Assembly: GCA_964019425.1 (NCBI GenBank)
Contig: OZ025783.1
Location: forward strand, 558,001 to 622,000
Reading direction: 5' to 3'
From: Flectonema sp. DT1601
Taxonomy: Eukaryota
Length of the DNA: 64,000 nt
Shown in pieces: positions 790 through 62,700 of this stretch. The notes below the pieces were generated by a model that ran no database searches, was not told the DNA's origin, and worked only from the letters and a program-made list of their open reading frames with translations. Position 1 is the stretch's first letter, and every line of letters begins with the position of its first letter. Position numbers and translations under genes: made by a program.

Positions 790-1250
790 ATGGTGGCGCC
801 CAAAAAGCCTGCAGCAAAAGCAGTCACAAAGAAGAGACGAAAATCTTCTGCAGCTCAGCCGATGGTATGTAACTAAATTACTTCGAAGTTGTGTTTGTGG
901 AAAAGGACTATGCAAACAAACAGGGCGGGTGGCCTATCGAGGATTATGTTGAGAAAATAATTGACAATCTCAGTGATATTCCGAGTGATTTGCGAATTCA
1001 GTGGAAAAAGGATTATAAACGGATTCTTGAAGAGGAGGGCTACTTCACATTTGACTCCCTCCGCACCTCGATGACTCAGGGGCCTGTGCAGAGTACTTCG
1101 GCGGCTTCTAGTGCCAGTGACTGGGAACAATTTTGTGATCGCAAAGGCATCGCTGATGTTTTCATGAAAGCAGTTAAAGGCGATTTATATCAACAGGACA
1201 ACAGCTTTAAATTTTGTGGGATTTGTACAATGTCATGTCCTTTCATGTAA
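790..1250 (+). CDS. Small 2-exon protein (~139 aa): basic N-terminus, possible SAM-like domain, C-terminal CaaX-like motif (CPFM)
   Basis: ATG 790 just after TTTCCAG acceptor; exons 790-864 and 906-1250 joined in frame by a 41-nt GTATGT...AAG intron; MVAPKKPAAKAVTKKRRK|DYANK... Confidence 0.6.
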
Positions 1251-1415
1251 CCGCTTAATTGTTGAGACCGAAGGAAATAGATTGCTTTGTCACTTACACT
1301 TCTGTTTCATTTGTTGTTTGTTTGCTGTTGCCCCAACTTATTTCTATTTTGTTTCCAGGAATAGAAGAATACAAGATGGAATAAGGAAACATTTCTTCCA
1401 CGGGAACCTGGAGAC

Positions 1416-1420
1416 AAAAA
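1416..1420 (-). terminator. RNA polymerase III oligo-T terminator of the tRNA-Arg gene
   Basis: TTTTT on the minus strand 1 nt after the discriminator base. Confidence 0.8.
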
Positions 1421-1421
1421 T

Positions 1422-1493: not shown

Positions 1494-1969
1494 TTGTTTT
1501 CAGAAAAAGTTTTTTACTTCTTTCTTCAGAAGAAGTCTAATATTTATTCTTTCTTCCTTATTTCCCTTTTTCTCTATAGGCGAAACCTACACTCTGCCGT
1601 ATTCCATTATACCTGGTTTTTGTTTCCGGCTCACAATTAATTCGTAATTGAATAACACGATTCCGTACTGCACTGAATGACAACACGGAAAAAGAGACAT
1701 GTATGCAGATAAGTTAGAAACATTGATTATAATGTAGAGCAAGTAAGTCATTTGCAGAGTGTTAGCCTGTAACATTTTAGTCACCGTGTCATGAGTTTTT
1801 GTAATTTTATTATTGAGTTCTGATACAATACAGAGATTTATATTCGTATGAACCTAATCAAACCGTCTTTTCCCCCTTACCCCTTTATTTAATAAAATCT
1901 TCCTTTTCCATTCTTTAGAAAAATACTGTTTGTGTCTGGGTGGCCTTGAATGCCTTACATTTTTACAGG

Positions 1970-4786: not shown

Positions 4787-4925
4787 AGTTGTGGAAGTAA
4801 ACCTGTTGTAATCATTACGCTGTGGAATTGTTTTTCTTTTCTTCTTTCTTATCCCACAGAAGTCGCTGCGTAACAGTATTGTATATAAAACAGTTGATAT
4901 TTATTTTGTTATCCAGACATCCAAA

Positions 4926-7900
4926 ATGCCTGATCCGTCGTCAGTGGCGGCTGCCGCTGCGCGCAGGAAGTCAGCAAACACGGGAGAGCCGAGAAGAGAA
5001 TCGCAGGGAAAGCAGATTTCGCAACTAAGGTCGCCTAAGTCTCCAGGACTATCACCAGGATTTGATGCAGGAAGTCCTGGAGATGAGTTAACTCCTTCAG
5101 GAGCGCAACACAGAAGAAGTGTTGGGTTCAGTGGGACGATGCAGGGACCTGGAAGACAGTCACCAACATCACCAGCTGGATCACCGTCCACAGCAAGTCC
5201 GAAAAAAAGACGTATATCAGCAGCGAAAAAACGTGACGAAGATGGACAAGATGACGACTCAAGTAACAACGTCAAAGTATTTCTGAGAGTACGTCCATTC
5301 AACCAGAGAGAATTAAAGATTCACGAAGAACACTACGACTCTATGCTCAGATCAATTATTGATATGCCAGCAGGACAAGAGGGACCTATTAATTTCTTAG
5401 AAAAGATCGGAAGTGGTGACGACGAAGACTACGCCGTCTCTGAAGTTTTCGACTTCGATAAGGGTCTCTGGTCTATAACACCTGAACAGCAGCCTTATGA
5501 TTTCGAATACGCAACTCAACGTAATGTCTTTAACGAAATGGGTCAACCAGCTTTAGACAATGCCTGGAAAGGATTTAACACTTGTATATTTGCATACGGT
5601 CAAACCGGAGCTGGAAAGACCCATACTATGATGGGTCGATTCAGTTACTCCGACGGCGAACTTCTCGACGACCCTGGTGTCATCCCTCTCCTCTGCAGAG
5701 GTCTTTACGACTCTATTGAAGCCAAGAGGAAGGAAGACGAAGGAAAGGAAAATAAATTAAGTGTCATTACCTACGAGACTGAGTTGATGGCTTACGAAAT
5801 TTACAACGAGCGTGTGAGAGATTTGTTCTACTTTCACACTCCCGGAAGAAAGGCCAAGGATGAATTGAAGGTCAGAAAGCATCCAACAGAAGGTACCTTC
5901 GTTGATGGAATTACTAAACTGAAACCAGAAACATGGGAGACATGTATCTCTGATGTAGAAGCTGGAAACAGTGGGAGAACTGTTGGAGCTACAGCGATGA
6001 ACAGTGAGTCGAGTAGATCTCACTCTATCTTTCAAATTAAGTTTACACAAGTAGAGACGAGTATTCCACAGGCTCGATTTGAGAAGCCTGTCATCAACAG
6101 AAAGTATTCAATAATCAATTTAATCGATTTAGCAGGTAGTGAACGTAACAAGAAGTCACAGGCTGCTGGAGAACGTCTTGTTGAAGCGACAAACATCAAC
6201 TTGTCTTTAACAACATTAAAGAGAGTTATTGATGCTCTTGTTCATAATGGATTGAATGCTAAGCATCCAGTACAGATCCCATACCGTGACTCAGTTCTTA
6301 CTATGTTACTCTCTCACTCCCTTGGAGGTAACAGTAAGACTACTATGGTTGCATGTGTCTCTCCGCATTATGATAATTGTGAGGAGACTCTTAACACCCT
6401 CAGATACGCTTCTCAGGCCCGTCGTATTGTTAACATTGTTCGTGTTAATGAGGATTCTAAGGCAAGACAGAACCTGCTCCTTAAGTATGTTTATTATCTG
6501 TGGAATGGTTTTTTTATTTTAAACTTTTCGACTCAGACTGTCGATAGCAAGGAAAAAAACAAGCAAGCAACACCAACAACCACTAAACAGGGAACAACTC
6601 TCCAACTTACAACAAGAGCTTGAGGACCGAAGAAATGGAGATCTCAGTCCGCAGCAAATTATGGAACTGGAAGATGAGGTTTGTAACTTCTTTCGTATTT
6701 TGTGAGTAGAGCTATCAGTGGTACTGTTGTTGATAATACTTGCTATTGCGAAGCCAAACATAAAACAACACAAACCAGATTAAGGCCGGTCAAGAATCCC
6801 TCAGCGCATACGAAGCAGAAGCCAAGAAGCTCCGTCTTGAGAAACATGAAGAAGAACAGAAGAGATATCACCAGGCGTTCCAGCACTCGTTCCAGATGGT
6901 TGTTATGAAGAGACAGAAGGAAGAAGCTCAGAGGCTTGCAAAAGAAACTGCTAACCAATTGGTATGTCACTACTTGAGTGAGGGATATTCATTAAAGCAA
7001 TCATTGTATGTTTTGGGAGTACCAAAATAACAAACAGGTAAAAATGAATGAAGATCAAAAAACTGAAGTTAGAGAAGCCCGCAGAGAGCTCTCAACGGTT
7101 AAGCACGCCGCTGATGCTACCGCTGAGGAACTCCGTCAGGAGAAGGCAAAGAGAGAAATATTACAAACAAAGTCTATTGGTCTCCAATGGGTTGAGAAAC
7201 AGAGACGTGTCACTGCTGAAAAGAATGCTGCAAAGAGTCTTTCAGAAGCTACAGCAGCTCACAGGTATACAGATTTCCTTTTCTTTTTTCCTTCTAATTA
7301 TCATAAACCTAAACACTTCAATACCAAACAGGGAGGAAATCAATGCCATTATGGAAGAGGCCAACCTCCGCCACGATGAACTTATTTCAAAGATCAATGA
7401 GAAGGAGAATGAATACGAAGCACTTCGTGAAGATTTAGAATCCTTGAAAGGAACTAATAAGATGATCGAAGCGAAGGCAGAGGAGTACCGCGAGAGGACG
7501 ATTACGATCGAAAAGCAGGCCACTGGTAAGCTAAGTGACGAACAATACAAACACGAGAGAGAAGTGGAAACTCTTCGATCCAGGTTGACTGTCGAGAGAG
7601 AGGAAGTAAAGAGAGAACTTGAAAGTACCATCCAGCGCAGTAAGGTAAACGAAGAGGTTGTCAGACAAGAAGCTCAACAGAGAACTGAGACTATTGAATA
7701 CAACCTGAAGGCTGAGTTAGGTAGAATTCAAGAAAACACTGAATCACGAAGAATATCAGCAGTCGAAGAGTGGGAAGCTAAACTCTGCGCTGCTGAAGTT
7801 CGCAGAGATGAAGCTCTCAGAAAGCAACGTGAAAACTTTGAGGACGAACAACAACAACTAAAGGATTATTATGACAACAAACTTGCTGTCCATCTCGCAA

Positions 7901-10258: not shown

Positions 10259-11445
10259 CAAAACAAAACAAAACAAAAAGAGAATTAATCTGCGTGCAAG
10301 CTGCGTTCTTGTGAATTGAATTTCAATCTGTGCTCTTCATGAGTTACGCTACCCCCGTTTCCTACCTCGGAAATGTGGGAGATCCATGGTCGAACTGCCG
10401 ATTTCTTTGTGGCGTTGTGTGTTTCAGCCCTCAGGGAGCTACTACTCACAGCGTTAATAGAATCACGGCTCACCAGAATTGTTATCACCAAGGAGAGAAT
10501 GAGAAAGATCGGTGTTTGCGTAACATCCTTTTCCGTATTTGCTACTCCCGCATCCCTTCCTCCCAAAAAAAAAAAAAAAAAAAAACGATTCTTTTTATCT
10601 TCTATGTTTTGCTTTATACTTGCGAGCCCTTCCTGTTCCCCATGAGAACAGTCAAAAGACATAATTTGCTCTCGTTTCCCGTGATGGTTGTGGTGGTTTT
10701 TTATATTTTGCACATTGCAGTAAGCTCTTGCAACAATTTTGGGATTTTTCTTTTTGTAATGTAAGAGATAATTACAGTCATGATCGACATTTTTTTTTCC
10801 CTTTTTTTTTTCTTTTTTTTCTTTCTATTTTTTTCTTCTCCCCCTTCCTTTCCCGTTGAAAAAAATTATCGTTGAAAAAAATAAAAAAACGTATTCTTCC
10901 GCGGATAGGCTGCTGTATTCGATTCTTTTCCTGATGTGTAGCGTAGTGAACAACAATTCATTCGCACTAAACAAATTGAGCTTCTCTTACGCTACCATTG
11001 GTCACCTCCTCACGTAGTTCGAAGGTGAAGTGGTTGTAAAAATGAGAGAACAGGATAGAGGGTTGAAGTTTCCCAACAGCGGGGGAGAGGAAGAACACAA
11101 CATTGAAAGATAAAATAATAAACCAGGCGGAACGGAAATAAGAGAAAAAAAAAAAAAAAAAAAAATCCGAGTGTTATCTTTTTTTTTATTTTTTTTGCTT
11201 TCACCCGCGCAATTTCCCCCCAAACCCAAGTTAGCACCCAGCCAGTAACCCCCAGACCCACCAACAAGGTTACATCCAATAGTAGGATAACGTTAACAGG
11301 TGCTATTGGTATTTACATTTCTTCCTCTTTGACTCTCCCGACAGATTGGTTTGACATACAAATAAGAACCACAAAGTTACAAATCATCCCTTGTAGTGTA
11401 CTCTAGTGTACTAAACTTCTCACACCAGGTACACAGTATTAAGAA

Positions 11446-14400
11446 ATGTATATCAAAAGCATTTCGTTCGGAGGGTTTAAGTCGTACCGAGAGGGTAGTT
11501 TAGGAGGAGAGGAATTCAGTCCCATGGTAAACGCAATTGTCGGAAAGAATGGAAGTGGAAAATCGAACTTCTTTACAATGGTTCAGTTCGTATTAGGACA
11601 AGGAAGGTATCGTCAAATCAACGCAGCTGATAGAAAAACCTTGCTTCACGAAGGAACGGGTAAAATTATCTTCTCAGCATACGTCGAACTCATCCTCGAC
11701 AACTCTGATGGACGTCTCGTAATTGACAGCGATGCCAAGGAAGTAGCAATCAGACGTACTTTGAGTAGTAAGAAGGATCTTTATTCAGTTAACAACAAAA
11801 ACACGTCCCCTGCTGAGGTACACGCCTTACTAGAGGCTGCTGGGTTTGCTCCTTCAAACCCTTATAATATTGTAGAGCAGGGTAGGATTGCTGCTTTTGC
11901 AACAATGCAAGATTACGAACGATTCAACCTTCTGAAAGAGATTGCAGGAACTAAAGTATGTCCGCTGTTCGAGGATTTTTAATTGTAGTAATTGTATTGT
12001 CAGCATCTCAAACAATAAAACAAAACAGGTTTACGAAGTCCGTCGTGAGCAAAGTATGAAAGTACTAAAGCAGGCGGAATCTGATATGGTTCAAATTGAT
12101 GCAAACATAGCTGACATTGTAGGCAGGCTTGACGAACTTGGTGAGCAACGTGAAGAATACAAACTTTACCAGCAGTTGGAAAGAACTCAACGGTTTGTTA
12201 TTATTTTGGTTTTTGCACCGACGAAGTCGGAGAAGAAACTATTCAGGTTAGGAGCCGTTATTTATTATGTCATGTTATCTATTTCCCTGTGCGCCAGTAA
12301 AACTAGTTGCGATCAACACATATAAGGCTGCTTATCTATCTGAATGGTTTATTACGGAAATATTTAACAAAAAGTAATAAATAATCCAAACAGCTGTCTC
12401 CAGTATGCGATGCATAAACAGGCTGCTGATCAATCCATGTTACAGTTCAATGAAGTTGATGCAGAACTTAGCAAAAAAGGTTCTGGAGCACAGAGTGCTC
12501 ATGAAGCCCTTCAACAGAAGATTGCTGCACTGAAAGCATACGAAAAACAAACTTCAGCATTGAACGCGACGTTAATCCAATTAAAAAGACAAAAAGATTT
12601 AGTTATTCAAGAGAGAACTGGTTGGGTGACGAGGTACGCTAAAATCCAAGTAACTCGAAGCAACGTGTCGTCAGATTTAAAGTCGGAAGAAACAGCTAAG
12701 AAAAACGCAGAAAAGGCCATTCAGAAATTAGAAATGGAAGTCACAACCAAAGAGGAAGAGCTCTTGACTCGTGAAAAGGAACTGACTGAAAAAGAAGGAC
12801 AAGTCCACACAGACTTAGAGTCTCTTAATGAAGTTCAACAGAGAGTTGACTTACTTATTACAAAGAGAGGACGACACAATCAATTCTCTTCCAGGGCGGA
12901 GCGTGACGCGTGGCTTAAGAAGGAAATCTCAAGTCTGGAGTCGAATTTGTCGAAAATGAAGTCGGAGCACAGCCGACTTGAAACGGAAGCCACTTTCGAT
13001 ATTCCGACAAAAATTACTGAAAAAGAGAAACAGATTAAGGAAAAGAGAACCGCGCTCGTTGAGCAAGAAAAGAAGAGCGGCTATTCAAAGCAAAAAGGTA
13101 AAATAGAAAAATTGACAAAGGCGAGAGACGCTCTGGCTGATGAGCGACGTACTCTCTTCAGAGAGCAGTCTAAAGTACAGCAGCAGATTGATACCCACGG
13201 TGGGAGATTCTCATCTGCACAGCAGAAGTTGAATAAAACTATTCCGAGAGATATTAGAGCAGGTATGGCATCTGTGGCTGAAATCTTAAAATCTGAATCC
13301 ATTGAAGGAGTTCACGGATACGTATGCGATCTATTCACAGTCGATAAGTCTCTCCACACTGCTTGTGATGTCATGGCAGGCACATCCCTTTTTCATATTG
13401 TCGTTGAAACAAATCAAGTTGCTTCAAAGATTCTGAACGCTTTGAATGCCAAAGGCCTTCCAGGTAGACCTTCCTTTTATCCTTTGAATAGACTTAATAG
13501 TACTGCTAAGGAACTTCCAACAACTGAAGACAGTTTCCCTCTTTACTCAAAGTTATCATTTGATGACGAGTATAAAGCAGTCTTAGCTGACTTGTTTGGT
13601 AGAGTTCTGGTTTGTACCAATCTACAAGCAGCAGGTGCACACAGTAAGACACATAGCTGTCACTGTGTGTTACCAAATGGTGACAAGGTTGATAGTCGAG
13701 GTGGTATTTCAGGTGGGTTTAGAGATATACAGATTTCTAGAATTGGTGCCGCTGTTGACGTTAGGAAGTTAAAAGACGAAGGGACTTCACTTAGACAAGA
13801 GCTGACAACTCTCGTTCAAAAGGCGTCAGAGTTAGATCAGCAGATCTTATCAAAGAGAAGTAACTTGCAAACAGCAGAAACTTCTGTTGAAGAATACAAT
13901 CAACTTCGTGAGGGTGAAAGTTATGGAATTCGTGCATTTGAAAATGACATCAGAGAGTTAAAAGACACACTTCGGTTAGCAACGAAATCACTTTCTCAAC
14001 AGCAGTCGTACATCACAGGAACACAAACAGCTATTGACGCTATGACTAACGAATTAAAAACTGACATGGCTGAAAAACTCACGTCACAAGAAGCGAGTGA
14101 ATTGTCTTCCAAACAAACCAATCTTGACGAGCTCAAGAAGAACTTTTCTCACAAGTCTGCTGAGGTTGAGACTCTTCGTTCTAATGTAACAATTCTTCGT
14201 CAGCTTCTCAGTGAGAATTTAAATAAAAGAAAGCGACAGCTTCAAGACAAGATTTCAAACCTCACCAACCAGAATGCTCGCGACGTTGTTGATGATAAAA
14301 AGACAGGTCACGAAGCTGAACTCATGAAAAACAGAATTGAAAGCCTTGATCAGGAACTCACTGACGTCGAAAAACAACTCTACCTTGCTATTGAGGAAAA

Positions 14401-15510
14401 ATCGAAACAAAACGAAAAATCAGGTTTGTGTTCATTACTGCTCTCTTGTACTATTTTATTATAATCAATTCATTCATTCATTACGTATACAGTAATATCA
14501 TTCTACACATAACTAAATTACATAAACCAGGAAAAGAACGAGCTGAAGTCTCTCGTCTGAGTAAGCAACTCGGCAATGACCGGTCTGAGATGGATCAAAA
14601 GAAACGTCAAAGAGTACTACTGAATAACTCGTATGAACTGGCGATGGAACAGATTAGCAAACTCGGACCGCTACCGACAGGAGTAGAAGAGTACGAAGGA
14701 AAGAAGTTAAAAACACTTGAGAAAGATTTTAAGGACAACAAGGGAAAGATGAAAGGTTTGACTCACGTTAATAAGAAATCATATGATCAATACTCTCTGC
14801 TGAGTGACTCGAGAGAAACTCTTTCAAAGCAACGGGAGTGTAGACAGGGTGAAAAAGACACCCTCAAGAATCTAATTGAAGATTTAGACTCAAAGAAAGA
14901 TGAGGCTGTTCTGAGAACATTCCGTCAAGTGAAGTCTGGTTTTGCATCAAACTTTAAAGACTTAGTTTGTCATGAGGGAGCTAATGCTGAACTCGTTCTC
15001 CAAAAGGCAGACGATCTCAATTCTCCATCAAAAAAGAAATCGAAATCAAAACAAGCAGCTCGTGTTGATGAGTTTGTAGGAGTCGCAGTTCGAGTAAACT
15101 TCGGAGTTGGAGGTGGTGTTGGAGGAAGTGGTGATAAAGACTTGAGTAGACTTTCAGGTGGTCAGAAAACACTTGTGTCCCTCGCTTTGATCTTCGCTAT
15201 TCAGGGATGCGACCCGGCACCATTTTATTTGTTCGACGAAATTGACGCCGCACTCGATGCTGAGTATCGAAACAACGTCGCCCGTAAGATTCAAGCACTC
15301 AGTAAACACGCACAGTTCCTAATGGTTTCATTCAAACCTGAGATGGTTGACATAGCTGATAAACACTTTGCTATCACAAGTAAGAATAGAGTTTCAAAGC
15401 TCTCTAAGTGCACAGCTCAAGAAGCACAGAATGTCCTGACGATGTCCGACCCTGGCAAAGCAAAGCGCCCACGTGATGAGGATGAAGGTGACCTCACACA
15501 GGAATTGTAG
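11446..15510 (+). CDS. SMC3: Cohesin subunit SMC3; 4 exons, ~1227 aa
   Basis: MYIKSISFGGFKSY, Walker A GKNGSGKSNF, SNPYNIVEQG, hinge GDKVDSRGGISGGF, signature LSGGQKTL, QGCDPAPFYLFDEIDAALD. Exons 11446-11955, 12029-12192, 12394-14423, 14531-15510. Confidence 0.95.
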
Positions 15511-16224
15511 ATCAAAAAAGAGAGAAAAAAAAGAAAAAAAATACAATATTGGTTGGGATGTAGAACAGGCTTTTTAGCTTATAGATTTCAAATACTATTT
15601 TTTTTTCCTTTTCTATTTTGTTGTCCTTTCCCCGTATGGCTACTGCGTCAGTATAACGCAGTGCAACCCCCCAACCCGTCTCCTGGGTGGGAGGATTAGA
15701 TTTCAGTTTAAAAAATACTTCCCCTCCTCACCATTCCATTTTTATTTTAGTGATGGCCTTATTAGATGTTTTCTTTATTCTTAATTATAGAGCAGCTGTT
15801 CTTGCTCGAAAGAGGAAAACTGAAATAATAAGACAAGGAAGACAGACTTTAATTTCTTTGCTATCTCGGTAGTGATGGTTACATAGACCATTGATTTTGA
15901 TGGGCAAAAAGGAATAATTTTTTTTTTTTTTTTTGCAGTTTTTATCCGCAAACACTGTTAGTTTGTGACTCGCATTGCGGAAAAACTGCTTTATCGAATT
16001 CGTTCTACTAGAGTCCTTTTTATTTTATTTTATTTTATTTACCTTTTTTTTTTTTTTTTGTTGATACCACCGGCTCTCCTTCACCTAAGAAGATATATTT
16101 TCTTATTGTGTGCTGGTGATTGATTGCTTGTGGTGTACTGTTGAGCCTAGTGAACAGTTAAGGTGATATACTTTTAAGTTATATTTTCATATCAGCCTCC
16201 ACCCCTCGCTAACCTGCACAAGAC

Positions 16225-17377
16225 ATGCCGCCCACCAGGTGGTCATGTGAGGCCTGTGGTACTGTCAATAGGCCTCATGCAAGTGTTTGTGAAAGATGTA
16301 GTTCTCACTGTCCAATGGATGACACAGGTGTTTGGACCTGTCCAGACTGCACAACGAGAGTAAACGCGAGAATTTGTCCCTCCTGTCAACACAGACAACC
16401 TTTATCAAGCGAAGGAGTAGCGCAGATATTCGAAGGAATGAAATTTGTCTTCACTGGCATCATCCCAAAATCATTACCTCATTCTAGTGAGTGGAAGGAG
16501 TGGCAGCAGGCACTTCAAAGAGGAGCGCAGCCAATGAATGATCTCAGCTCAGAGATGACTCATTTGATTTATAAAGAAGGTTTTGAAAAGTCAGACAAGG
16601 TGCGAAAGTCTCAAAAACTTGGTCACAATATAAAAATAGTAGCCTCTGAGTGGTTTTACCAATCTATTGCTGTAGACGTTAAGCTAGATGAGAATCCGTA
16701 CACGTTGCACGGACCTCAGAAGAAGTTAGTGGCTGCAGCTGTGCAGGGACCCAGCAGAGATATCGCAACCGCATTTGCTTCTCAACTTCAGGAGATTGCA
16801 GGAAGCACAGATACTTCACAACCAGGTAACGGCAGTGTTAGGGTATCAAAGGCACTCACTGAGGACGGTGACTTCATGTGGTTGGTGCCTCCAAATCCTC
16901 CGAAGCCGCTATTTCAAGATTTCATTATGGCTTACTCTTCAAGCGTCAATCAGAAAATTATCGATCTCGCTGCCGGTTATTCCGCCAAAAGTGGTTCCCT
17001 CGAAACCGAAGCCACCTACTTCGTTGTTGCAAAACAAGATGAGGGGTATGTTGACTACCTATATTATCCAATGTTGGAAAGCAATTCACACAACCTTTTA
17101 CACTAAAAAAATAAAACAGCTCTCCGCAGGTTGAAACAGCACGCGAAAAGAAGATTAAACTGGTCCCTGTTGAATGGGTAAAACATTGTGTTCAGGTTTG
17201 TTTCCCTTTCTTATGGAAAGCGTTAGTTTCATTGAGTGCACACAGAATCTAGTCAGAGTTTCTTTTCCGACGTAGTAAAAAAGCGAAAAAAAAATAAAAT
17301 AATAATAACAGCTCCACGAGATATTACCAACCGTTGGCTGCTACAGTCTGGAGAATGATGCGGCACCTTCGCGGTAG
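16225..17377 (+). CDS. Protein with two RanBP2-like zinc fingers and two BRCT domains; 3 exons, ~320 aa
   Basis: WSCEACGTVN...CERC and WTCPDC...CPSC; BRCT1 IFEGMKFVFTG...THLI...IVASEWFYQS; BRCT2 LFQDF...TYFVV...LVPVEWVKHCV completed by exons 16225-17045, 17120-17195, 17312-17377. Confidence 0.8.
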
Positions 17378-18445: not shown

Positions 18446-18531
18446 TCTTAAAGCCCAACGATCAGCTTTCTAGTCGACACTTTCTTTTTTTTAAAATATA
18501 TTTTTTCATCATCAGGTATCAGATTAAATTG

Positions 18532-20460: not shown

Positions 20461-20803
20461 AGAGTTCTCGGGCTACCTCATTGTTATGGTCCTCTACTAC
20501 TGTACGCGATTACTCTCTTTTCAATTACAGCTGCACTTTTTGTTAGTTTTTTTTTTATTTCTTGTTCTTGTCATCCATCCTAGCCTTTATACTCTAGCGA
20601 GGATATATTTAATTAATCCTGCCGCTGATTAGCTTCTCTTCGTATAAATTAGTTGTTTTGAAAGTGAGTAAAAGATCCTTAATAACAACACTCTCTCACT
20701 CTCCAACAGTGTTATATCGTATGGAGGGAAGGTTATTATTGTACTAAAAAAATATGTTTAAAAAATTATTTTCACTTCCTTCCGACAGTCAACCGACTAT
20801 CAA

Positions 20804-26617: not shown

Positions 26618-27418
26618 GCTTTAACTGTTTGAATGTGATTGCGTGAGTATTGAAGAAAAAAACTATGCAGTTTTATTCGTTTTGTTTTTTTTTTCTTTTT
26701 GCAGATTTCCTTTTTTTTTTTTTGCCCTCTTTTATTGTAAGTGATATTGTATTTGCTCCATTTTATTAATGATGTAGGCTTCATCCCCACTAAGTGAGTA
26801 AGGCAAGGGAAGAAAATCAATAAGTAACTTTCCTTCCTTGTGTTGATTTCTTAGTCGTTATTCCTCCTCAGTTGAGTAGGGTCATTTCGTGACTAAAGTT
26901 CTTTTTTATAATTTAAGTTTTGCGTCAAGTTTCGCATAGTGAGATATGTATTAGGAAAATACTGCGTGTGCACAGTAATATGTCCACGTGTGCACTTTCC
27001 GAACAAAACAAAAATAAAGAAAGTGAGACGTAACATCGATATTTCCTCCCGCGAAATCGGGTCAGTAGGTTTTTTTTTTTTTTTTTTTTGTTTTTAATTT
27101 GGTGAACAAACCTGCTTTTGAACTTGTTCCTTTTGTTTCATTCCATTTAACAAGTTTTAACAACTAATTAACTGCAAGCTGAATGATACCTTCCTGCAGT
27201 CACGCGGACAGCAGAGGGTGTTGTATTTGTTGGCGGAAGTCGTCAGGTTTTTCTTTTCTTGAATGTGGTTTCTGTACGCTACTGAACCTACCTATCAACA
27301 TCCCAAATCTACTCTTGTAAACCATCCCAACAGTACCCCCCCTCTCAGTTTGTAGTCGAGTTGTGTAATTAGTTTTCTTTTTGTTTTATTTCATTTCTAT
27401 CCAACAGCTTCTTTATAA

Positions 27419-28187: not shown

Positions 28188-28727
<540 letters not shown>

Positions 28728-29056
28728 GGCTACAGCTTGTTAGTGTAAGAGAAAAAAAAAAATAGAGAAAACCAAGCAAAAAAAGCTCATCAAAAAAAAC
28801 AAAAAAAAAGCAACCCCACTGACCAGTAACCAGTAGTACGTCGGTTGGTACCGTCACCACGATATTCACTTGTTCTTATTTACTTTTATTTCGCATCAGG
28901 TTCTGGAATATGTTGCGACTGCGTATGCAGACAAATCATAATATCAATTACAAATTATAAAAGTATCCCCTCCTATTTATTTATTTAACAACAGGATTGT
29001 AACATTATTAATTATGTTAACTAGTTTATAAAGAAAATGTGATTATACTTTCTGAG

Positions 29057-30928: not shown

Positions 30929-31226
30929 GTTGTGTAAGGGTGTTAACTTTCTTCCCGCAAGCAAATTTTGGATGTTAACATCTGAGTTGTGTAAGTACTT
31001 TGTTAGTTGCTAATGTTTCTTCTTTGCATACTTCACCTTTCCAGGTGACAATTCTGTTTGCACTTTATCTCTGGTTTGAGTTTTTAACTAACAACCAAAT
31101 TATTCAATTATCAATATCCTTACAGGTGTATTACATCAGAGATAGCTGAAGTGAGAACGGATACAGCACAACCACTTAATAAAGTATAAAGCTAAACTCA
31201 TTTATATTCACAAACAGGTTGTATAC

Positions 31227-44401: not shown

Positions 44402-45255
44402 TTTATTTTTACGTTCTATTCATCTCCCGAAGTCTCCATTGTATGCTTTACAGCGTCTTTGAGTTGGGGAGTTTTTTTTTTTTTTTTTTCCATTCATTCT
44501 TCTGGTGAGGGTTTGCTTCTGGACTTAAGCAGTTGGTGATTGTTCTTTACTGATGGAAAAGGAAATGAAATGAAAAAAAAATAAATAAAAAAAAATAGGA
44601 TCTTTTTGTTGTTTGTCATGTTTCTTTTTAAACGACATTGTTGTTGGGCTTTAAAAGTTACCTCTTGCCTATATATCCCTTATGATGTATTCTGAAGTTT
44701 TTTTTTTTTTTTTTTTTTTAAATTTATAACTACACTTATTCATTTTGACGTTGTTTGTGTCTTTTCGCTGACTGTTTCCACAGCCAGAGATCGGATCAAA
44801 CAAGAGATATTTTTTAATTACCTCTCTAGTTTCTTTTTTTTTCTTGTTCATTTTTTATGTGCTGTCACGGTGTTGCTTATAAATAGTAACCATCAAAAAC
44901 ACATTCATTCCAAGCACATGTTAGTTCCTCAAAGAGCCTGATGAAGCGGTGAAGTAAGTAAAAAAAAGGTAAAGAAGAAAAAAACAAAATAAATAAAAAT
45001 ACCCAAGCATGCTCGCTCCCCCTACAATCTTAACATTATTTTATAGGTGGTAGGTTAGAGTTTTTGGTGAGGTTTTTATTTATTTTTTTTTTTTTCTGAA
45101 CCTAACAGGAAAAACACACTAAACATGAGGAAGAGGTTTTGTCATTTATTTTCCTCCCCCTCGTTTATTATTGTTTTGTACATTGTCATTCACTGAGATT
45201 ATTATCTCTGTTTTAAATAATTTTTTATTCTTAAAAAGCATTCCCATCCACTACA

Positions 45256-49891: not shown

Positions 49892-50568
49892 CCCCTCTTT
49901 TTTTAAAAAAATCCAATTTCTATTTTATTATTTTTTATTGAACTAATTATTTATTTTATTCTATTTTTTTTTTTTTTTATCAGTTTTTTCTGGTTTGATT
50001 TACCACTACTGACGAGAGAAACGAAACGATAAAAACCCCAAAAAAAGGTTTAAAAAAAAAAAACAAAACCCACCACATAACGTTAGATAATCACGGTAGC
50101 ACAACTACCTTGTTGTCTGCAGGGCTAAATCGCTAACCGGTATGTAATCCATTAACGGATTTGTTCCAGGCAGTAGTTATTCTGGAAGGCACGATGGTGA
50201 AAACCATCATAAGTTCTATTGAGAAGCTGCTTCTGACCGAATGGTTTTGGTGGTGGGTTGTGACCAACGGAATTCATATTTTAACTGAGCACCGTCTACT
50301 ATTGATCTATTGTAACACCAAAAAGAAATGATTTTTAAAAAAAAAAAAAAAAAAACATTTCTTTCCGATCGTTTAAACGAAAAACTGTCTCGAATCAACG
50401 ATGAACAAGAAGACTGTTCAGTATCCGCACGGCACACTGTTCTGTTGGTAGATAATGTTTTCTATGAGAGTTGATTATGAGTAAAACTTGACTTATGTTG
50501 AATGTCTTTGTTTTATTATTTTTTTTTCACTTCGCTTTTACAGGAATACGATGTAACACAAAAAAAAG

Positions 50569-51756: not shown

Positions 51757-52839
51757 AGTCTGATGTGTAGTGGATTTCATTCTAACTGATGGCCGACCAA
51801 AACGACGATTATAAAATAATAAAAAGAGTCTCTCCAGTTTTGTGTTGCGATAGTACCAAAGCTCGATTTCTTTTTGTTAAATATTTCGATAATCTTATTG
51901 TACATGGATTCTAATATGTATTTTTTTTTCTTTTTCCCTTTTTTTCCTGCGGTGCAAGGATTTGTGATTTTTTTTCTTTTTCGTATTTTTAATTAAGTTC
52001 CCTTTCTCTTTTTTTCATTAGTCTTATTGCGTTCCTTTTTTTTACTTGTGCACTTCATTTTAGTTGTCACAAAAATATTAAGGAGTTTCGAGTTGGTTAT
52101 TCGTAAGATCATTTATTTTCTTCTTTTTGTTGTGCGCCGCCCCCCCTGTGCTAACTTCGTGATGGTATGATGGACTGCTTTCCGTTTTTTTTAGTTTTTT
52201 TTTTTTTTTTTTGTTGTTGTTTTTTCCCCATGAAGTGGTATACGATCCACTAACAAATATAAAAAAGAAGCTCATTATGAATTGTTTTCAGTTAACCTTC
52301 TAAAAGTATGTAATGTTGTGGCTGACTTCGTTTTTTTAAATTACAGCTTTTGTTGGTATCGTGTATGTCGTTGGTACACAAGAAGACAAAAACAAATACA
52401 AAGCACTTGGTTATTCTCACCAATGAGAAACCGATAGCACAAAAGAATAATATTGACGATGCTTGGTGGTGGAATTCGATTCTATTGCAAAATCCGGATG
52501 AAAGAGAAAAAAATAAAAAAGAACAAATTTAAAATAAAAAAAAAAACAAGAAAAGGAAATTTAAAAAGAGCAATGAGGATAAGGAATTATTTTCTCTTCA
52601 GGCATCTGATGACCACCAGAAGAACAAAATAGGAAAAAAAAAAAAAAAAAACATACACACTATTTTCCATCTAAGCAGTCTAGTATTAAACATGTCGTTT
52701 TTGTTGTTTTTATTTCAAAGGTCGAACACCTGTTTTTTTTGTAAAAAAAAGTTTATTAACTGATTGTGATTGTTGTAATTTATATCATTCTCAGCTATCA
52801 AGAGAAAACAAAAAAAAAAAGAAAGAAAAAAAGAAAAAA

Positions 52840-54485
52840 ATGGCAGGAGCTTTCGCACAAGCGAATGACGATAGTTTCTATGTTATGCTGTTTGGATTTG
52901 TAGCATTTGCCTGTTGTATGTTAGCGATTGAGCCTTTTGTACGCGGGAAGGCATACTACGATGAGACAGTCGAAGGAATGAAGTACAGCACAAAAGTGAT
53001 GAAGGTTATGTGCAGCCCATCAAAGTTGAAAATCGGATTTGGTTTCCTAACATCAAACATGTTATATACGAAACAGTTTATACTCCCATTAGCCAAGAAT
53101 GTATTTAAGAAATGGAGATTGATGTTGTGGACATCATTTGTTGTCTTATTTTCTATCGTAGCATACCAAACCTTGTCGTTTGACCCTCACTCCATTTTAG
53201 GATTAAAGACTGATGCTGCTCCAGGACAGATTAAGAAAGCTTACCGAAAGCTTTCCATGAAGCTTCACCCTGACGTGAACGCTACTAGAGAAGCAGCTGT
53301 TCAATACGGCAGAGTTAAGAAAGCATACCACATGCTAACTAAACCTGATGAACGTCTTCAAAATGAAGCCGATACTGATGCTCAAGGACCTGGAGTTGGT
53401 CTTCCGTCGTTTTTAACAAATCCAGAGTATGCTGTTTTTAGTATGACCTTGTTGTTGGGATTATTGTTTTCTGCTCCATTTTACATGTTGTTCGCACTAA
53501 AGCAAAAGAAAACTGACGAAACGAGCATACCTTACATGATTAGGTGTGTAAAGTTCGCAAAGATGGCTGAGAAGATGTTTCATGATATTGGTTTACCGCA
53601 ATACCCAGAAAACACTTATGAAATTGATCAAAACGTGAAGTTGGTATCGTTGCTGCAGAAGTTTGAACTTGCTGGTTGCTTTGAAACACCAGAAGAAGAA
53701 ATTCCTATGAAGCCATCTGAAGCAGCTCTATTCTTCCCAGACCTCTGCTCAGAGACTGAAGTAAAACAGCTTCTTGCAGAAGCAATAAACGGTAACCGCT
53801 CAGCTGAAGGGCAGCTTACTAAACATTTATTAATTTATATTAACACCGATGAGATCGATGAAATTCAAAAGATTCTCGACGCTCATCCAATCTCAGAGGC
53901 TGACAAAGAAGCCCTATCAACATACAAAGAGTTAAAGAAAGGAGATAAGAGTGACGATAAGAAAATGATGGATAATCTCGTATTTAATCTATATTCTGAT
54001 GAGCAGGAGGAGACAGCTAAGTACTTTTTAGAACCTCTGTTGGGAGAGATATTAATGCAGGCTGACGTGGCTCTGCCATGCCTCAATCCTCAACAAAGAG
54101 GTCTTGAAATCTGTAATAAATTAAGGCAGGCATACATTACTCGTTTCGATAATCTTGCTCAGCTTAAGAAACATGCTGTCGAGCGAGGTGATGCAAGCGA
54201 GCTTCCTCGCAGTCACAAAGAAAAGCTTCTCAACACCGTCAAGCAGCACACAACATCTCTCAAAATCTTCTCAGAAATGATAACGGAGGTATGTTAAACA
54301 TTTTCTTTTTATTGTATTTCATAACCGTTGGTAAAAAAGAACTGTTCACTCTTAAACTACAATATTCTATAACACACTAAACAACACAGCTTAAAAGTCG
54401 CTGTAAAATGTTCCAGAAGCGTCAGGAATCAGCCTTACGATCCCGCAACAAGAAGATTCTAAGCGGTAAGGGAAAGTTGAGTTAA
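52840..54485 (+). CDS. SEC63: Sec63-like membrane J-domain protein; 2 exons, ~514 aa
   Basis: Two TMs, then FDPHSILGL...IKKAYRKLSMKLHPD, then GVGLPSFL and a third TM (Sec63 topology). Exons 52840-54288 and 54390-54485; the spliced C-terminus KGKLS is a KxKxx ER-retrieval motif. Confidence 0.7.
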
Positions 54486-55976
54486 ACTTAACGCTAAGCA
54501 ACCACACTACTACTTTCTGCTTCTATTGTAATTATTTACCCTTTCTGTTCTGATATGAAATAGTACTTTCAGAGGATCCTGTGGCAGATAGAGAGCAGCA
54601 CCTTCATGTTACCTTGGTAGTTGACAATTGTAAATTGTCAGCAAATTCGCTCACCTATACTCGAAGGATCTTCTCATGTTGTGAAGAAGTGATGAGAAAG
54701 TGCTGCCTTTATCTGACTTCCCATCCCCTCCCAGTCCCCCGTTTCCCTCACCCCGTTAGTTTCGCTATCATGCGGTAAATACAGTGGAAAAAAAAAAAAG
54801 ATCAAAAAAAATAATAATAATCATACTTTCTGTGTGGTCTTCGGTCTCTTAGCCCCCACTGATTTTTCTTTTTTTTATTTTCACAACGTTTCGCCTGTAT
54901 GACTATCGACCTATGACACTTGCCTATATAAGAAACATTTGTGAGGGCTGAGTAATATTTTTACTTGGCAAAACTGTGTTGGGTTCGACACTTTATACTT
55001 TAATAGTTGTTGAGTCTATCTCTGTATGGCACTGCAAGAAACTGCCCTCAGAGATATTTAAGGGGGGAGGTAAAATCTACCTATTTAAGACAGGCCATGC
55101 AGCATCCGATTAAAAAAAATAATAAATTATTGCTTCAAACTGCAATATTTGTTGTGTAATTTTTTTTTTTTATATTGACAACTCGTTTTCTTCCTTCTCA
55201 CAAGCCTATCTTGTTTTGTTTGTTTGGTAGTCAAAATCAACGAACAGTTCGCATTCATTCTTTGCGCGTGTGGAAAGTGTAGTCATAAAATTTACTTGTT
55301 TCTCTCACTCACGTGTCTTGTGTTGGTTTCCAATATATTTCAAAGCCACGGATGAATAAGTAATTTTACGCGCAGCCGAAAAGATATCCATTATAACTCC
55401 GTCAGGTTTCTCTGTACCCCCCTTCCGTGTTGTTCTTGGTTTTATTTTATTTTTTATTTCTCTCTTTTGAGATTCGTGTTGAAACCTTCTTTTATTATTA
55501 TTTTCTTTTATACCATAGCGGCCTTTTTATATAAGGTATTGATTGGCAGCGCGGAATAGTTTTCTATGTCTCAGTCTGACTGGCTTACTGTTTTCGTGCA
55601 CACAAAATTTAATTGATAAGTTATACCTTACTCATAAGCCAATTCTTTGTTAAAGCTGTTTTAAAATTTCATTCAGAGCTACCCTTTTTGTGTGAGATTC
55701 ATTGCTGTCATAAGTATGCATATTTCCAAGAAAGCACAAGAAACGAGAGGAAAAAAAAGAGGAGAAAAAAAAAATTGTGTCAAATCATCGGCAAAATGTA
55801 TTGTGGAAAAAAAAAAAAAAAAAAGTGTCGGTCGAATAAAAAGTAATTATTTTCTGCTTCACTTAAACAGGATGGCTGCCCAGATGTAAGAGACTCTTTC
55901 GTGATGTAATTACATTTGATTAATTAGCAGTCTTCGTTTGAAAGCAATTACCTTATTTTGTATTAGAAAAAAGAAA

Positions 55977-58900: not shown

Positions 58901-59165
58901 GTATGACATACACGATGGGATCTTTGATGAAGAAAATTTAAATGAAAGCGCTGCAACAGTCCAGCGATGCTTTCGATGTTATGCAGCTCGAAAACACTAC
59001 CGACAGCGTTACTTCTTTAGACACCTTTCAGATGAGGATCGCGAAGAAGCTGCTGCGTTCATTCAATTCCACGTTCGAAGTTTCCGCCTTATTCGCTCTG
59101 CTAAAAAGGAACTCGCCATGCGAAAGACTCTAATTCAGAATTACTTATCATCAGTTTTTGATTAA
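55977..59165 (+). CDS. Large protein (~1062 aa) with N-terminal TPR-like helices, internal Trp-containing repeats and two C-terminal IQ-like motifs
   Basis: TPR-like TYASLACL...DAVLYL and NLSLAMLL...YDAAITCA; IQ-like ATVQRCFRCYAARK and AFIQFHVRSFRLIR; first ATG 55977. Confidence 0.8.
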   Translation: MKEVEMRKIHNLKEELLQHEGGPAEQSVRASDYVKTLNAAASGIIKSKGDIDQAARLLNEAEFITRREEEYFPGSSGELLREEYRAATYASLACLSRHNGSCDDAVLYLLETASLEGEPSPHTNLSLAMLLIDMQRYDAAITCAGQAVREMSIRHKVATTRGEVLPRSEQSLLAASYHILGKAQLQSSVSDRREESHSTLSCGLMHAKSLGIQSETYIEISNTIKHCVNPRRDSTDQSSHIFPLEATPQKRRFTPPARETQKWGDSSLPQLPRNGSGSGDSGKFFYKRNVVDILPALPQQPQPPHDKFNATAPARMSVHRTSLSKKALPSPKLGATYPSCIPPADPSSGNFVRKKICNTFSHLDFGTDPTVVAARLCNASNENEFINLVAGITFFGSSQIKHTLNGNDTVHTTWRSFSGLKATHLLIACDERKELWVAAQSKNAPIRKNGLKIETVADNMVIGDRLLLGSKNVACVVRSPLPALIPRKPSVAPLSNAVARPISGGSQRKVSLPRQSPIITDSYTSTPEWEKLNHSNIRQYIDFLQREVEIEEAALASPCSKAYIYPTPPPVSPPSRPRVLQQNEPDDYQREQPSEEGLRSALELCAEGCMWTTGLVRFEKEREPHDSDAESNVSTDTDDLFPSLSKCHKVSQTDNSKTCIWLAGVIKLDYDIDSLASEISQEDNTLPFLNVVLQQGTESSLVWLRGVVNLVPDLFLGDDDTASYSSDSCSTTELDERVLVNDSFPALQCTARGHELDLMWLAGVSNYKKYPLVTSHDNHKVPALTMLMSLGSFDQLEWIHRLCHIINDDDDDDDDDTDSSSDESNFSFCGVEQNHQIPNKFSALKCAVGSDIKSLIWLSGVARYEYYPLPQPISDDESCSSEYSFCSTLNDHEIPEKFPALKCTAGGMTSSLMWLTGVTRYEKYPTPPIVKSVINNPEPTSNLVMNDRSDRFSYSKLVFLLDCVDRSEVKSLSLLYDIHDGIFDEENLNESAATVQRCFRCYAARKHYRQRYFFRHLSDEDREEAAAFIQFHVRSFRLIRSAKKELAMRKTLIQNYLSSVFD
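58398..58421 (+). repeat. (GAT)8 microsatellite encoding poly-Asp
   Basis: Read directly. Confidence 0.9.
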
Positions 59166-59786
59166 TTCTTCGGTGAAATGAATATACTGCCGAAGTTCTT
59201 TTTATTTATCTTTTTGTTTTAGCCATTCACTTGGTTGTTGAGAAGTTCGTCGTTCGTTTTCTTTTTTTTTTCTTTTAAAAGAAAGAAAAGTTGTGGTGGA
59301 CATATCTCGCCAACATTGTACACGTTATCCCTACCGCTGGCTTTAGAAGTCGTCATTATTGACTTTGGTCTCCAACACGATTGATCAAAGTGAGTAGCCG
59401 ATACTTATATAATATTGGTTTCTGTAATAGCCTTCTGATGTGTCATCAAATGTACGATGTGTGTTATGTTTTCCAACATAGCACCATCTAATGTAATTCA
59501 AAAGAACAGCGTCGAAAAATAAAGAAAAAAGGGGTTCTGATTACCACCCGCCATATTGCCGTACTCTTTATGCATTTCTCCAATTGTTATTATCACAGAG
59601 ACCATGGTTACAGTTAACACTTGTCCAGTCTGTGTTTTGGTTAGTTGTAGTCGTTATTATTTAACCTTTAACATCATCTGTCTTACAGGTTGTTTTTGTG
59701 TCAATCGTGTGGTTTGTGTGGTGTTATCTTGTCCTCGTATCACACGGAATTTTATTATTTATTTCAACAGTTGGGTGGCTGACAAG

Positions 59787-62700
59787 ATGCAGGGCTACCA
59801 GACTGCCTGGTCCCTGGCAATTGTTATGATGTTTGTATCTGTGCAGGGACTTCCTGGGCCACCGTCAAATGTTGAAATGCATTTTTGGGACACCCGTTGT
59901 AATAGTTTAATGTATAGAAGCTGGTCATACCTAACTGAGGGCCAAGTGAGCTTACAAAGTGTTGCTTTCTCTGAAGAAGGACTTTACAGCTGGGATGATC
60001 ATACTAGCCGGGTATCCAACGACAATGTAATTAGACAATCAGAGTTAGTGGCTGCTGGCTTTGGAGCTGCGTGGTTTGTTAATGCGAACTCTTCATTTAC
60101 AACAAATAAACAATTATGGTTATCTACTATTGATAGCTACGAAGATCAATTTCTTACTAGCAGTGACTTAGTTAGGATTTATGGTTTTCCTTGGTACCGT
60201 TTTGAAGCGTTTGAGTTGTTTTCATTTTACAGACGGCCAGTTGAAGAAGTTGTTCGTCCATTGTTACTAAATTTGGACTCACCTGCTGACTTACATTCTG
60301 ATGCACGGCAAGTGATATTTTCACATGTCGATCCTGACTCTAAGCTGATCAGAACGATATCACTTTTTGAAGTATTTAGGAAGTCGAGAGTCTTATTGAA
60401 TGTCGGTAGTACTCAAAGTGATTTAACGAATATCATAATTACGTCTCCGTTTGTTAGTTCTGATTGGGTCGTCTACACGGAGTTTGATGTGAATTCTAAA
60501 AAATCTCAAGTCTGGATTGAAGACACCAGCATTGAAACAAGAGAACTCGCACTTCATCCTGATCTACAAACATTTTGGGGATCTGTGTGGAATACTAGTT
60601 CACCTCTTGTTGTTGATGGTGGTGATTACGCGGCAGTTGCATTTTGTTCTTTTCTTTTATCAGAAATTGATTCCTTGCAACTTATTAATGATGAAGACAC
60701 TTACAGGGTTGTCCCGTTACAAAAGAATAGCAAACTACACGTCACAGTAATGCTATTCCCTTCTCGATTTAGATGTGAAATCACATACGACATGTGGAGC
60801 AGTATTATTCTATCTACTGTTAGTACTATCACTCTTGTTGATTACCTTGGAGGAGGAGGTTTTCTATTTCTTTCAATCTCTTACAACGAAGATGGTCAAC
60901 AACGTTACGGAATTATCGCTTATCCGATTAAAACATGTATTGGGGAAGAAGGAGAAAAACCATTTCTAGTTCCTAACTCAGTCTCACTCACACCTATCAA
61001 GTTAGTTACGTCATCATACGATGGTGTAATATTCGCAACAGCAAACGTGTTATTCACTATTAAAGTTTATGCAAAGGGTGCATTCGGAGAATACAATACA
61101 CTAATTTGTAGGTCCTTTGACGAAGACTTTCCAACCATCGGAGCGGTGTCGTTATTAAATGATCAGTTGATCTATCAAAAAAAGAATTTGGAAGCTGAGG
61201 CGAGCTATCAATTTGCTCTAAGTCAAGGCAGTTCTGCTAAAGAGCTTCAAGCTTTGAAATCAACTATAAATGAAATGCTTAGAATGGATCTTGATAAAGA
61301 TAATGATCGACATTGGGATGCCGTGGATCGATTCCCTCTGCGATCAGCTTTTTTCAATGACAGTGACAACGATGGAATTGGTATGTACATCATCCTACTA
61401 CAACATAATAAAATACAACCCACGCAACCACTCAACTAAAACAGGTGACCAAGGAGACATAGTAGCCAATGACGATAGCTGTGCTAACGATCTGAGAACA
61501 AACCCTGCTGGGTGTTGGGATGACATTAGAGTTCTTTATATAACTTGGTCAGTTGTAACTCTTTGTGTTATCTTAATTGCTGGATCCATCGGATATTACA
61601 ATAAAAAAAGTAGAGAGAAACTCTACACCAAAAAGAAAGCAACAGCAGACGAATGGATCAATAGACAATGGAGAGAAACAACAAGACATGACGTGACTGA
61701 AGAAGAGTTGTTTACATTGATGGCTGATCTTGACGACAGAATTCAGCATGAACAGGGCATGTCTAATTACACTCTTCATACGTTTGCAATATCAAAACGA
61801 AAACAAAACAAAAAAAACAATACAGGAATGCTAAAGTCTGGTGAAACTGTTGTACAAGCATTCTTATTCCTTTTGACAATGGCATCTGTGGTTCTTTGGA
61901 TTTCTTCAATGTGGTCACTCAATGGTTTTAATTTAGCTGAAGAGCACGCTCTAGCTTGGGTTGACTTTTATACCTCAACAGTGTTCTTGATTGATTTAAC
62001 CTACAGGTGGGTCTTCAGAGATGAAGGAGAATATTTAAACTTCAGAGACTACTGCCTTAAGAATTGGTACGACTTCCCTTCTCTCATATCTGACGTTCCC
62101 GGAGTCACTACTGCTGGACCTCTTAATATTTTAGTAGTTGCGAGACTTATTCGTGTTTTGAGAGTATTTAAAATGTTTCGAGTCGTTAGATTATATCACA
62201 AACTAACTCAACAACAAGCAGTCTTGGGATTAATTCTAAGATACGACACAATCTGGCAAGCTGTATTCGTCTGTGGTCTTATATTGTCATTGGGAGTCGT
62301 CATAAAACTATTTGAACAGCAAGAGGATCCTGAATTTGAACCGTATGCAAATGTTCTGTGGTTTTGTGTTGTCACAGTTACGACTATTGGATATGGTGAC
62401 ATGGTACCGGTGAATCCTGTTGCGAGAATTCTCGCAGTATTTTTGATGGTTTCGGGTATTGGGATCATCGGAGTTTTAACTGCTTCCATGGGAGACGCCG
62501 TTCGCTACTCCGGTGTCGACAAAGGAATGATGATGGAACGTGTTAAAAAATTACAACAAGGCAAATGGCGACTCGCACTCGAATACTTGCGTGTTTCTGT
62601 TTTATACAACCCGATCTTTAATGTTATTAAACCTTTCGCAAGAGGGAAGTGTGCCCATCCGAGTTGCACATGTCCATTAATTACTTCAGTGATTGGTTGC

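Follow-up and report, generated by a model that had tools for sequence, protein, structure and literature searches.

CAGs at intron ends and ahead of start codons follow tracts of different composition in a 64-kb window of Flectonema sp. DT1601

Gene content and origin of the window

The analyzed window is a 64-kb stretch of contig OZ025783.1 of Flectonema sp. DT1601 (assembly GCA_964019425.1, positions 558,001 to 622,000), from which all counts and statistics reported here were drawn. This study concerns two kinds of CAG in it, namely those that end introns (cis acceptors) and those that precede start codons (pre-ATG CAGs) and are likely acceptors at which a spliced leader is added in trans, and in particular the sequence tracts ahead of them. 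The modelled protein genes of the window lie without exception on the + strand, forming a one-strand gene cluster, and 8 of the 17 genes bear introns. According to Pfam, the gene content comprises WD40, kinesin, SMC3, BRCT, DUF4209, and EF-hand repeat genes, two ubiquitin-L40 genes, PAS-repeat, FYVE, DnaJ-domain, and ion-channel genes, and several unknowns. The closest relatives of the kinesin are transcript-derived diplonemid proteins, namely those of Flectonema neradi (90% across an alignment of 931 residues) and of D. ambulator and D. japonicum (57%); the ion-channel protein had F. neradi as its sole match (75% over 1355 residues). The window thus stems from a diplonemid close to F. neradi.

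Intron models

Sixteen introns were modelled, with lengths from 59 to 201 nucleotides (nt) and a median of 87.5 nt (Table 1). Eleven of their junctions, located in the genes of the kinesin (4), SMC3 (3), the ion channel (2), and the BRCT protein (2), were confirmed, indirectly, by gap-free alignment across the junction with homologous proteins of other species, and the remaining five introns were modelled by reading frame only. Fifteen introns are of the GT-AG type and one is of the GC-AG type. The donors are near-invariant, 14 of the 16 being GTATGT (n = 9) or GTTTGT (n = 5), with GTATAC and GCATGT occurring once each. All 14 acceptor sequences quoted in a preliminary description of this DNA were found where it had placed them, but two introns were revised. 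The first intron had been ended at 905 and called atypical; an alternative in-frame acceptor at 923 has an A content of 0.60, ends in CAG, and fits the class. A homologue search on this choice returned the window's own protein alone. Position 923 was used, so that all 16 introns end in CAG, and the contrast between cis and pre-ATG sites described below is unchanged with 905. The last ion-channel intron was corrected to GC-AG: a GT donor at 61782 was rejected because it gives a stop, and the alignment with the F. neradi protein P0133 supports the GC donor at 61757.

Composition of intron acceptors and pre-ATG CAGs

For each of the 17 start codons the nearest upstream CAG was picked blind to composition, and positions -23 to -4 before the acceptor were compared between this set and the 16 intron ends; three sizes of this interval were used, and p values are uncorrected. 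The intron acceptors had contents of A 0.62, C 0.19, G 0.03, and U 0.16, whereas the pre-ATG CAGs had A 0.26, C 0.17, G 0.06, and U 0.51. Background CAGs in intergenic DNA (n = 137) showed A 0.29, U 0.33, and G 0.17, and the U content at coding CAGs was 0.27. The two sets were almost completely separated, with an area under the receiver operating curve (AUC) of 0.99 for A and 0.02 for U (p = 1e-6 to 3e-6), and the direction was constant in all three interval sizes. Intron acceptors exceeded the intergenic CAGs (p = 5e-9) and the coding CAGs (n = 826; p = 1e-10) in A, and a comparison of pre-ATG with intergenic CAGs showed differences in U (p = 9e-6) and G (p = 1.5e-7) and none in A. The contrast was found within each of the eight genes that have both kinds of site (paired comparison, p = 0.008), it persisted when nine confirmed introns were set against six homologue-supported starts, and a leave-one-out classifier based on U minus A assigned 31 of the 33 sites correctly. 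There are, then, two classes of acceptors in the window that differ in composition.

The intron tracts had been described as A/C-rich, of which the A-richness was borne out and the C-richness was not: C equals the background, and CA repeats are not enriched in the 16 introns. The discriminating axis is therefore A versus U on a G-poor background, with G making up just 1 of 192 bases at positions -15 to -4 of the intron tracts. Intron ends carry no polypyrimidine tract, as had been proposed, for U + C amounts to 0.35 at positions -23 to -4, which is below background, and the longest pyrimidine run does not exceed 4 in 15 of the 16 introns. The median longest pyrimidine run is 6 at pre-ATG CAGs versus 3.5 at intron ends. 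The pre-ATG tracts, previously described as U/pyrimidine tracts, are indeed U-rich, but long pyrimidine runs are not typical of them and they are better called U/A-rich.

Several observations speak against an entirely clean division. A simple U-rich rule holds for 14 of the 17 pre-ATG CAGs; at 11436 and 31217 A exceeds U, the sites at 781 and 55930 are near even, and the intron acceptor at 40255 is intermediate. The seven AG sites that had been listed as following U tracts were all recovered, but represent a favourable subset of the 17 from which these four weaker sites were missing. When the nearest AG of any kind was taken instead of the nearest CAG, the U excess over intergenic AGs was not significant (p = 0.077), and the two-class result therefore presupposes that acceptors are CAG or YAG. 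Moreover, 11 of the 17 start codons were assigned on open reading frame (ORF) logic alone.

Table 1. Introns and pre-ATG CAGs modelled in the window (positions count from its first nucleotide).
Feature	Position	Strand	Remarks
Intron, GT-AG	865..923	+	Likely acceptor 923 (A-rich CAG); alternative in-frame acceptor 905 (AAG); frame only
Kinesin intron 1	6485..6590	+	A-rich acceptor; gap-free vs F. neradi transcript protein P0001; skips U-rich in-frame CAG 6536
Kinesin intron 2	6679..6778	+	A-rich acceptor; homologue-confirmed
Kinesin intron 3	6962..7037	+	A-rich acceptor; homologue-confirmed
Kinesin intron 4	7265..7331	+	A-rich acceptor; homologue-confirmed
SMC3 intron 1	11956..12028	+	A-rich acceptor; end of exon 1 = human residue 166, start of exon 2 = 167
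SMC3 intron 2	12193..12393	+	A-rich acceptor; colinear with human and fission-yeast-type SMC3 chains
SMC3 intron 3	14424..14530	+	A-rich acceptor; colinear with human SMC3; skips U-rich out-of-frame CAG 14492
BRCT-gene intron 1	17046..17119	+	A-rich acceptor; colinear with P0142 and P0145
BRCT-gene intron 2	17196..17311	+	A-rich acceptor; colinear with homologues; skips 5 upstream YAGs
Intron 1 of gene starting at 31227	33057..33155	+	A-rich acceptor; frame only; skips U-rich CAG 33088
Intron 2 of gene starting at 31227	33273..33394	+	A-rich acceptor; frame only
PAS-domain gene intron	40192..40255	+	Weakest cis tract (A 0.40, U 0.35); frame only
DnaJ-domain gene intron	54289..54389	+	A-rich acceptor; frame only
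Ion-channel intron 1	61381..61444	+	A-rich acceptor; gap-free vs F. neradi P0133
Ion-channel intron 2, GC-AG, donor GCATGT	61757..61825	+	A-rich acceptor; gap-free vs P0133
Pre-ATG CAG, ATG at 790	759..781	+	Tract of intermediate composition (U 0.35, A 0.30)
Pre-ATG U-rich CAG, WD40 gene	1946..1968	+	Likely leader acceptor
Pre-ATG U-rich CAG, kinesin	4894..4916	+	Second U-rich CAG at 4859
Pre-ATG CAG, SMC3	11414..11436	+	Exception (A 0.35, U 0.20); alternative CAGs 11428, 11344
Pre-ATG U-rich CAG, BRCT gene	16173..16195	+	
Pre-ATG U-rich CAG, DUF4209 gene	18500..18522	+	Also 18515
Pre-ATG U-rich CAG, EF-hand gene	20766..20788	+	
Pre-ATG U-rich CAG, ubiquitin-L40 copy 1	27385..27407	+	
Pre-ATG pyrimidine-rich CAG, ubiquitin-L40 copy 2	28300..28322	+	
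Pre-ATG U-rich CAG, gene starting at 29057	28972..28994	+	Upstream ATG in between
Pre-ATG CAG, gene starting at 31227	31195..31217	+	Exception (A 0.45, U 0.35); U-rich CAGs 31125, 31044
Pre-ATG U-rich CAG, PAS-domain gene	34201..34223	+	
Nearest CAG, FYVE gene	45086..45108	+	U-rich, 147 nt upstream of start (uncertain)
Pre-ATG U-rich CAG, gene starting at 50569	50521..50543	+	Upstream ATG in between
Pre-ATG U-rich CAG, DnaJ-domain gene	52772..52794	+	
Pre-ATG CAG, gene starting at 55977	55908..55930	+	Tract of intermediate composition (U 0.45, A 0.40)
Pre-ATG U-rich CAG, ion-channel gene	59748..59770	+	Start 59787 supported by P0133

Pre-ATG CAGs as likely spliced-leader acceptors

Twelve of the 17 pre-ATG CAGs lie within 30 nt of the start codon versus 24% expected (p = 8e-5; the expectation is that of non-start ATGs, n = 180), and the median distance from CAG to ATG is 16 nt as compared to 76 nt. 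A consensus donor located 55–205 nt upstream was found for only two of them, in line with the background frequency of 8–10% (11 of 137 and 81 of 824), versus 14 of the 16 intron acceptors. Because donors are missing upstream, and judging also from their position and composition, the pre-ATG CAGs are likely acceptors of a spliced leader. In the diplonemid P. papillatum, the leader is reported on essentially all mRNAs, and 5' untranslated regions (5'-UTRs) have a length of approximately 70 nt (PMC10161547).

Alternatively, the pre-ATG CAGs could be the ends of 5'-UTR introns or unused sites within U-rich intergenic DNA. Intergenic DNA of the window is indeed U-rich (0.365), 25 of 165 other intergenic CAGs satisfy the U-rich rule, the nearest CAG is more than 44 nt away from the ATG in 4 of 17 cases, and at three sites an upstream ATG lies between CAG and start. 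However, the differences in U and G from intergenic CAGs and the proximity to the ATG make this explanation improbable. 5'-UTR introns, which the preliminary description had itself named as an alternative that would undo its reading, were rejected as a general explanation, since donors occur upstream at the background rate.

Selection of intron acceptors and other intron signals

Each used intron acceptor was compared with all YAGs competing with it, the interval considered beginning 30 nt behind the donor and extending 40 nt into the following exon. Three introns had no competitor; among the other 13, the used acceptor ranked first in A content 12 times, where 3.8 would be expected, but first in pyrimidine content just twice. 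Eight introns have a YAG that lies upstream of the used acceptor and 30 nt or more from the donor, and all eight skip one that is more pyrimidine-rich than the used acceptor; six of these eight are homologue-confirmed. The F. neradi protein is without the 18 residues that use of the U-rich, in-frame CAG at 6536 would add, and use of the CAG at 14492 would cause a frameshift in SMC3. It is therefore not a pyrimidine tract that determines which intron acceptor is used.

A U-rich tract does exist in most of the introns, but it sits behind the donor. At positions +7 to +26 the U content is 0.47, which exceeds the value at -23 to -4 in all 16 introns, and this donor-side tract is richer in U than intergenic tiles (p = 0.005) and than unused donor-like sites in intergenic (p = 0.037, n = 17) and coding DNA (p = 0.001, n = 19). 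It is possibly a donor enhancer, and together with the mode of acceptor choice it would fit a definition of the splice sites across the intron, starting from the donor.

The opposite gradients within the introns, with U at 0.46–0.49 behind the donor and A at 0.58–0.65 ahead of the acceptor, are complementary in kind, as would be expected if the U-rich 5' part paired with the A-rich 3' part in the manner of euglenid and hemistasiid non-canonical introns. Such a fold-back is very improbable and was largely refuted here by folding energies, which in the 16 introns equal those of shuffled sequences (mean z -0.05 for global and +0.11 for local folding), and by the acceptor tract being predicted as mostly unpaired. 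The introns also differ from the euglenid and hemistasiid non-canonical type in their ends, which are GT-AG or GC-AG. A branch-point consensus in the introns was rejected as well, with YTRAY occurring in 5 of the 16 versus 6.9 expected; ACTRA was found in 6 of 16 versus 2.9 expected (p = 0.051), which is at most a hint.

Another conceivable origin of the A-rich ends, which would then be an inherited trace and no signal, is that the introns arose from a single mobile element or from poly(A) tails. The non-coding DNA of the window is indeed full of long A and T runs, but an all-against-all comparison of the 16 introns yielded only low-complexity matches of 16–22 nt with no apparent junction repeats, on which basis a common mobile origin was rejected. 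As the A tract is also nearly devoid of G and stops exactly at the used CAG, we give this explanation hardly any credence.

A possible cis/trans code and its alternatives

In Trypanosoma brucei, the pyrimidine tract directs leader addition as well as polyadenylation approximately 100 nt upstream, and no branch-point consensus exists (PMC9639853, PMC6597758). Since one tract drives both reactions, an intron end resembling a leader acceptor would risk cutting its own gene. That cis-splicing and leader addition compete in trypanosomes is illustrated by depletion of the protein DRBD3, upon which the leader joins exon 2 of RBP20 and PAP1 becomes polyadenylated within its intron (PMC12592628). A mechanism can be proposed for the window, in which a U-rich CAG would receive the spliced leader and an A-rich CAG would act as an acceptor only if paired with a donor close by. 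By analogy with trypanosomes, the U-rich, donor-less CAG would be recognized on its own by U2AF65/SF1, leading to leader addition and to polyadenylation upstream. An intron acceptor, having no U tract, would bind U2AF65 poorly; U1 bound at the donor would make contact with it across the intron, and it would thereby be shielded from leader addition and premature cleavage. The A tract itself may be read by a protein, a second U2AF65-like factor being one candidate, or may provide an unstructured field of branch adenosines. Of the explanations considered here, this one appears the most probable. Whether the difference between A-rich and U-rich CAGs works as a cis/trans code in this sense is, in our judgement, evenly balanced, and we put the same even odds on the A/U split helping to keep leader attachment out of gene interiors.

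The window also contains evidence that counts against such a code. If U-rich CAGs attracted the leader, they should be avoided within genes, but coding sequence contains 12 of them where 17.2 would be expected (P = 0.12; expectation from synonymous shuffling of 15 genes, the EF-hand gene and the second ubiquitin copy being excluded as repeats), and the predicted avoidance was thus not found. Three more lie inside introns (6536, 14492, 33088), intron-internal AG and CAG counts equal those of shuffled sequences, and a further 25 U-rich CAGs are situated in intergenic DNA. In Euglena, furthermore, introns and outrons have one C-rich tract in common (PMC11170887), which indicates that a euglenozoan can manage without two codes. 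The persistence of U-rich CAGs in genes and intergenic DNA implies that a U tract is insufficient for leader addition, and the donor may therefore do most of the deciding. The earlier proposal that composition could tell cis from trans is supported as far as the two classes are concerned, but the findings speak against a strict code.

Taken further, the presence or absence of a donor might alone decide between cis- and trans-splicing, with the A-rich end being a lineage-specific trait of intron definition, such as an open, AG-poor spacer or a branch field, that has no role in excluding the leader. The distribution of donors and the tolerance of U-rich CAGs within genes agree with this explanation, as do the lower predicted pairing of cis tracts (0.26 versus 0.52–0.54 for background), the variation of the intron 3' tract among diplonemids, with A predominating in D. 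japonicum but C in other species (PMC12621601), and the premise, stated in PMC5832876, that donors in outrons disturb trans-splicing. It leaves unexplained, however, why U falls below background at intron ends (0.16, compared with 0.33 in intergenic and 0.27 in coding DNA) and is enriched at donor-less sites of the same transcripts. In Schistosoma mansoni, moreover, intron acceptors that take the leader are more U-rich despite their donors (PMC5832876). We consider a donor-only decision possible but doubtful.

With regard to the factors that would read a composition-based code, an ancestral U-binding U2AF65 could serve leader trans-splicing and the coupled polyadenylation, and an A-binding factor, possibly from a U2AF65-like family gained in diplonemids, could serve introns. 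A family of this kind, OG0019132, is annotated as U2AF large subunit and listed as diplonemid-gained beside the universal family in supplement file 5 of PMC10161547, with entries for P. papillatum, S. specki, and H. phaeocysticola. Its absence from the R. humris data set (PMC10161547) is unfavourable to this assignment, and its label is an automatic annotation, which makes it a lead only; the two U2AF65-like families are represented by DIPPA_10128 and DIPPA_35898. U2AF1/2 are present in Diplonemidae (PMC12621601). Such a division of labour is a rather unlikely, speculative extension of the proposed code; if true, diplonemids would possess one spliceosome with two dedicated acceptor readers, and this would account for the survival of genes with many introns in transcripts that are polycistronic and universally trans-spliced.

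Comparison with other splicing systems

The introns of the window resemble the canonical introns described for Diplonemidae in PMC12621601 in their GT-AG ends, GTATG donor, CAG acceptor, and the rarity of YTRAY. According to the same source, the 3' tract of D. japonicum consists mainly of A, and a weak tendency of this kind exists in L. lanifica and R. humris. The intron half of the present observation is therefore already in print for D. japonicum, where the A tract was interpreted as spliceosome flexibility (Thakur et al., 2025; PMC12621601). In comparison to these introns, those of the window are longer (median 87.5 nt versus 41 nt in D. japonicum), five of the 16 have GTTTGT donors, and CA repeats are not enriched. 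The main text of PMC12621601 contains no match to 'spliced leader' and no comparison of intron and leader acceptors. As to whether the contrast had been reported for the lineage, a question left open by the preliminary description, only the A-rich intron half was found in print; a comparison of cis and leader acceptors in diplonemids was not found in the literature searched (subscription papers and theses being outside its scope, as were the supplements of PMC12621601 and PMC10161547's Additional file 1, which may contain such logos).

In trypanosomatid leader acceptors, too, the AG lies close to the start codon and follows a U-rich tract (PMC9639853, PMC6597758, PMC12592628), and these organisms share with the window a one-strand gene cluster and the lack of a branch-point consensus. 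They differ in that the three introns reported for trypanosomes are guarded by the protein DRBD3, whereas 8 of 17 genes in the window have introns and these have a distinct acceptor sequence; pyrimidine tracts of kinetoplastid introns are described as having no fixed position (PMC11613528), to which PMC6221363 contributed nothing further. Euglena gracilis also combines frequent cis-splicing and leader trans-splicing in one nucleus, both at CAG, but with one C-rich tract for both classes (PMC11170887), whereas the classes of the window are nearly disjoint. Similar to the window, leader-taking acceptors of S. mansoni are U-richer and have longer pyrimidine tracts, but there the difference is a matter of degree and 43% of leader sites are intron acceptors (PMC5832876), in contrast to the intron acceptors of the window, which have no U tract.

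How a cell that adds a leader to all mRNAs spares the ends of its introns is an open question, which diplonemids, with introns in approximately 41% of their genes (PMC10161547), face at scale. The near-disjoint A and U signals make it directly testable. If the two-acceptor code is real, it would assign a function to the unexplained A-rich intron ends of D. japonicum and offer a simple rule for separating introns from gene starts in diplonemid annotation.

Additional features of the window

A look-up of 10 further ORFs of the window in protein clusters revealed no relatives, as seven were singletons and three were absent. Metagenomes were scanned twice for genomic loci related to the window, which yielded 0 and 29 loci, respectively, the latter including two with kinesin orthologues and one with a distant SMC. 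The two kinesin orthologues (L014 and L028) are diplonemid-type and intron-free, and are situated on contigs of 3.4–3.5 kb, which look transcript-like and carry no useful upstream DNA.

The ubiquitin-L40 genes (27425–27814 and 28338–28727) are arranged in tandem and near-identical, but their upstream DNA is unrelated, and a pyrimidine-rich CAG lies 17 and 15 nt ahead of the respective ATG. The EF-hand gene (20804–26617) is without introns and encodes 1937 amino acids, mostly near-identical EF-hand repeat units. The PAS gene model (34267–44401) comprises 3356 amino acids and has a single intron; besides numerous PAS domains, it shows a TmcB-type TPR match and membrane-like segments. Between two of the protein genes, a gene for tRNA-Arg(ACG) occupies 1422–1493 on the minus strand, and thus not the strand of the gene cluster.

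Finally, four hairpins (47795–47845, 48091–48130, 48328–48368, and 48894–48935) occur in the long non-coding stretch 3' of the FYVE gene. No convincing match was obtained in Rfam. The hairpins have a common stem and varying loops, and their outer base pairs change between the copies yet still pair; they are possibly a repeated 3'-UTR element or a small-RNA processing element.

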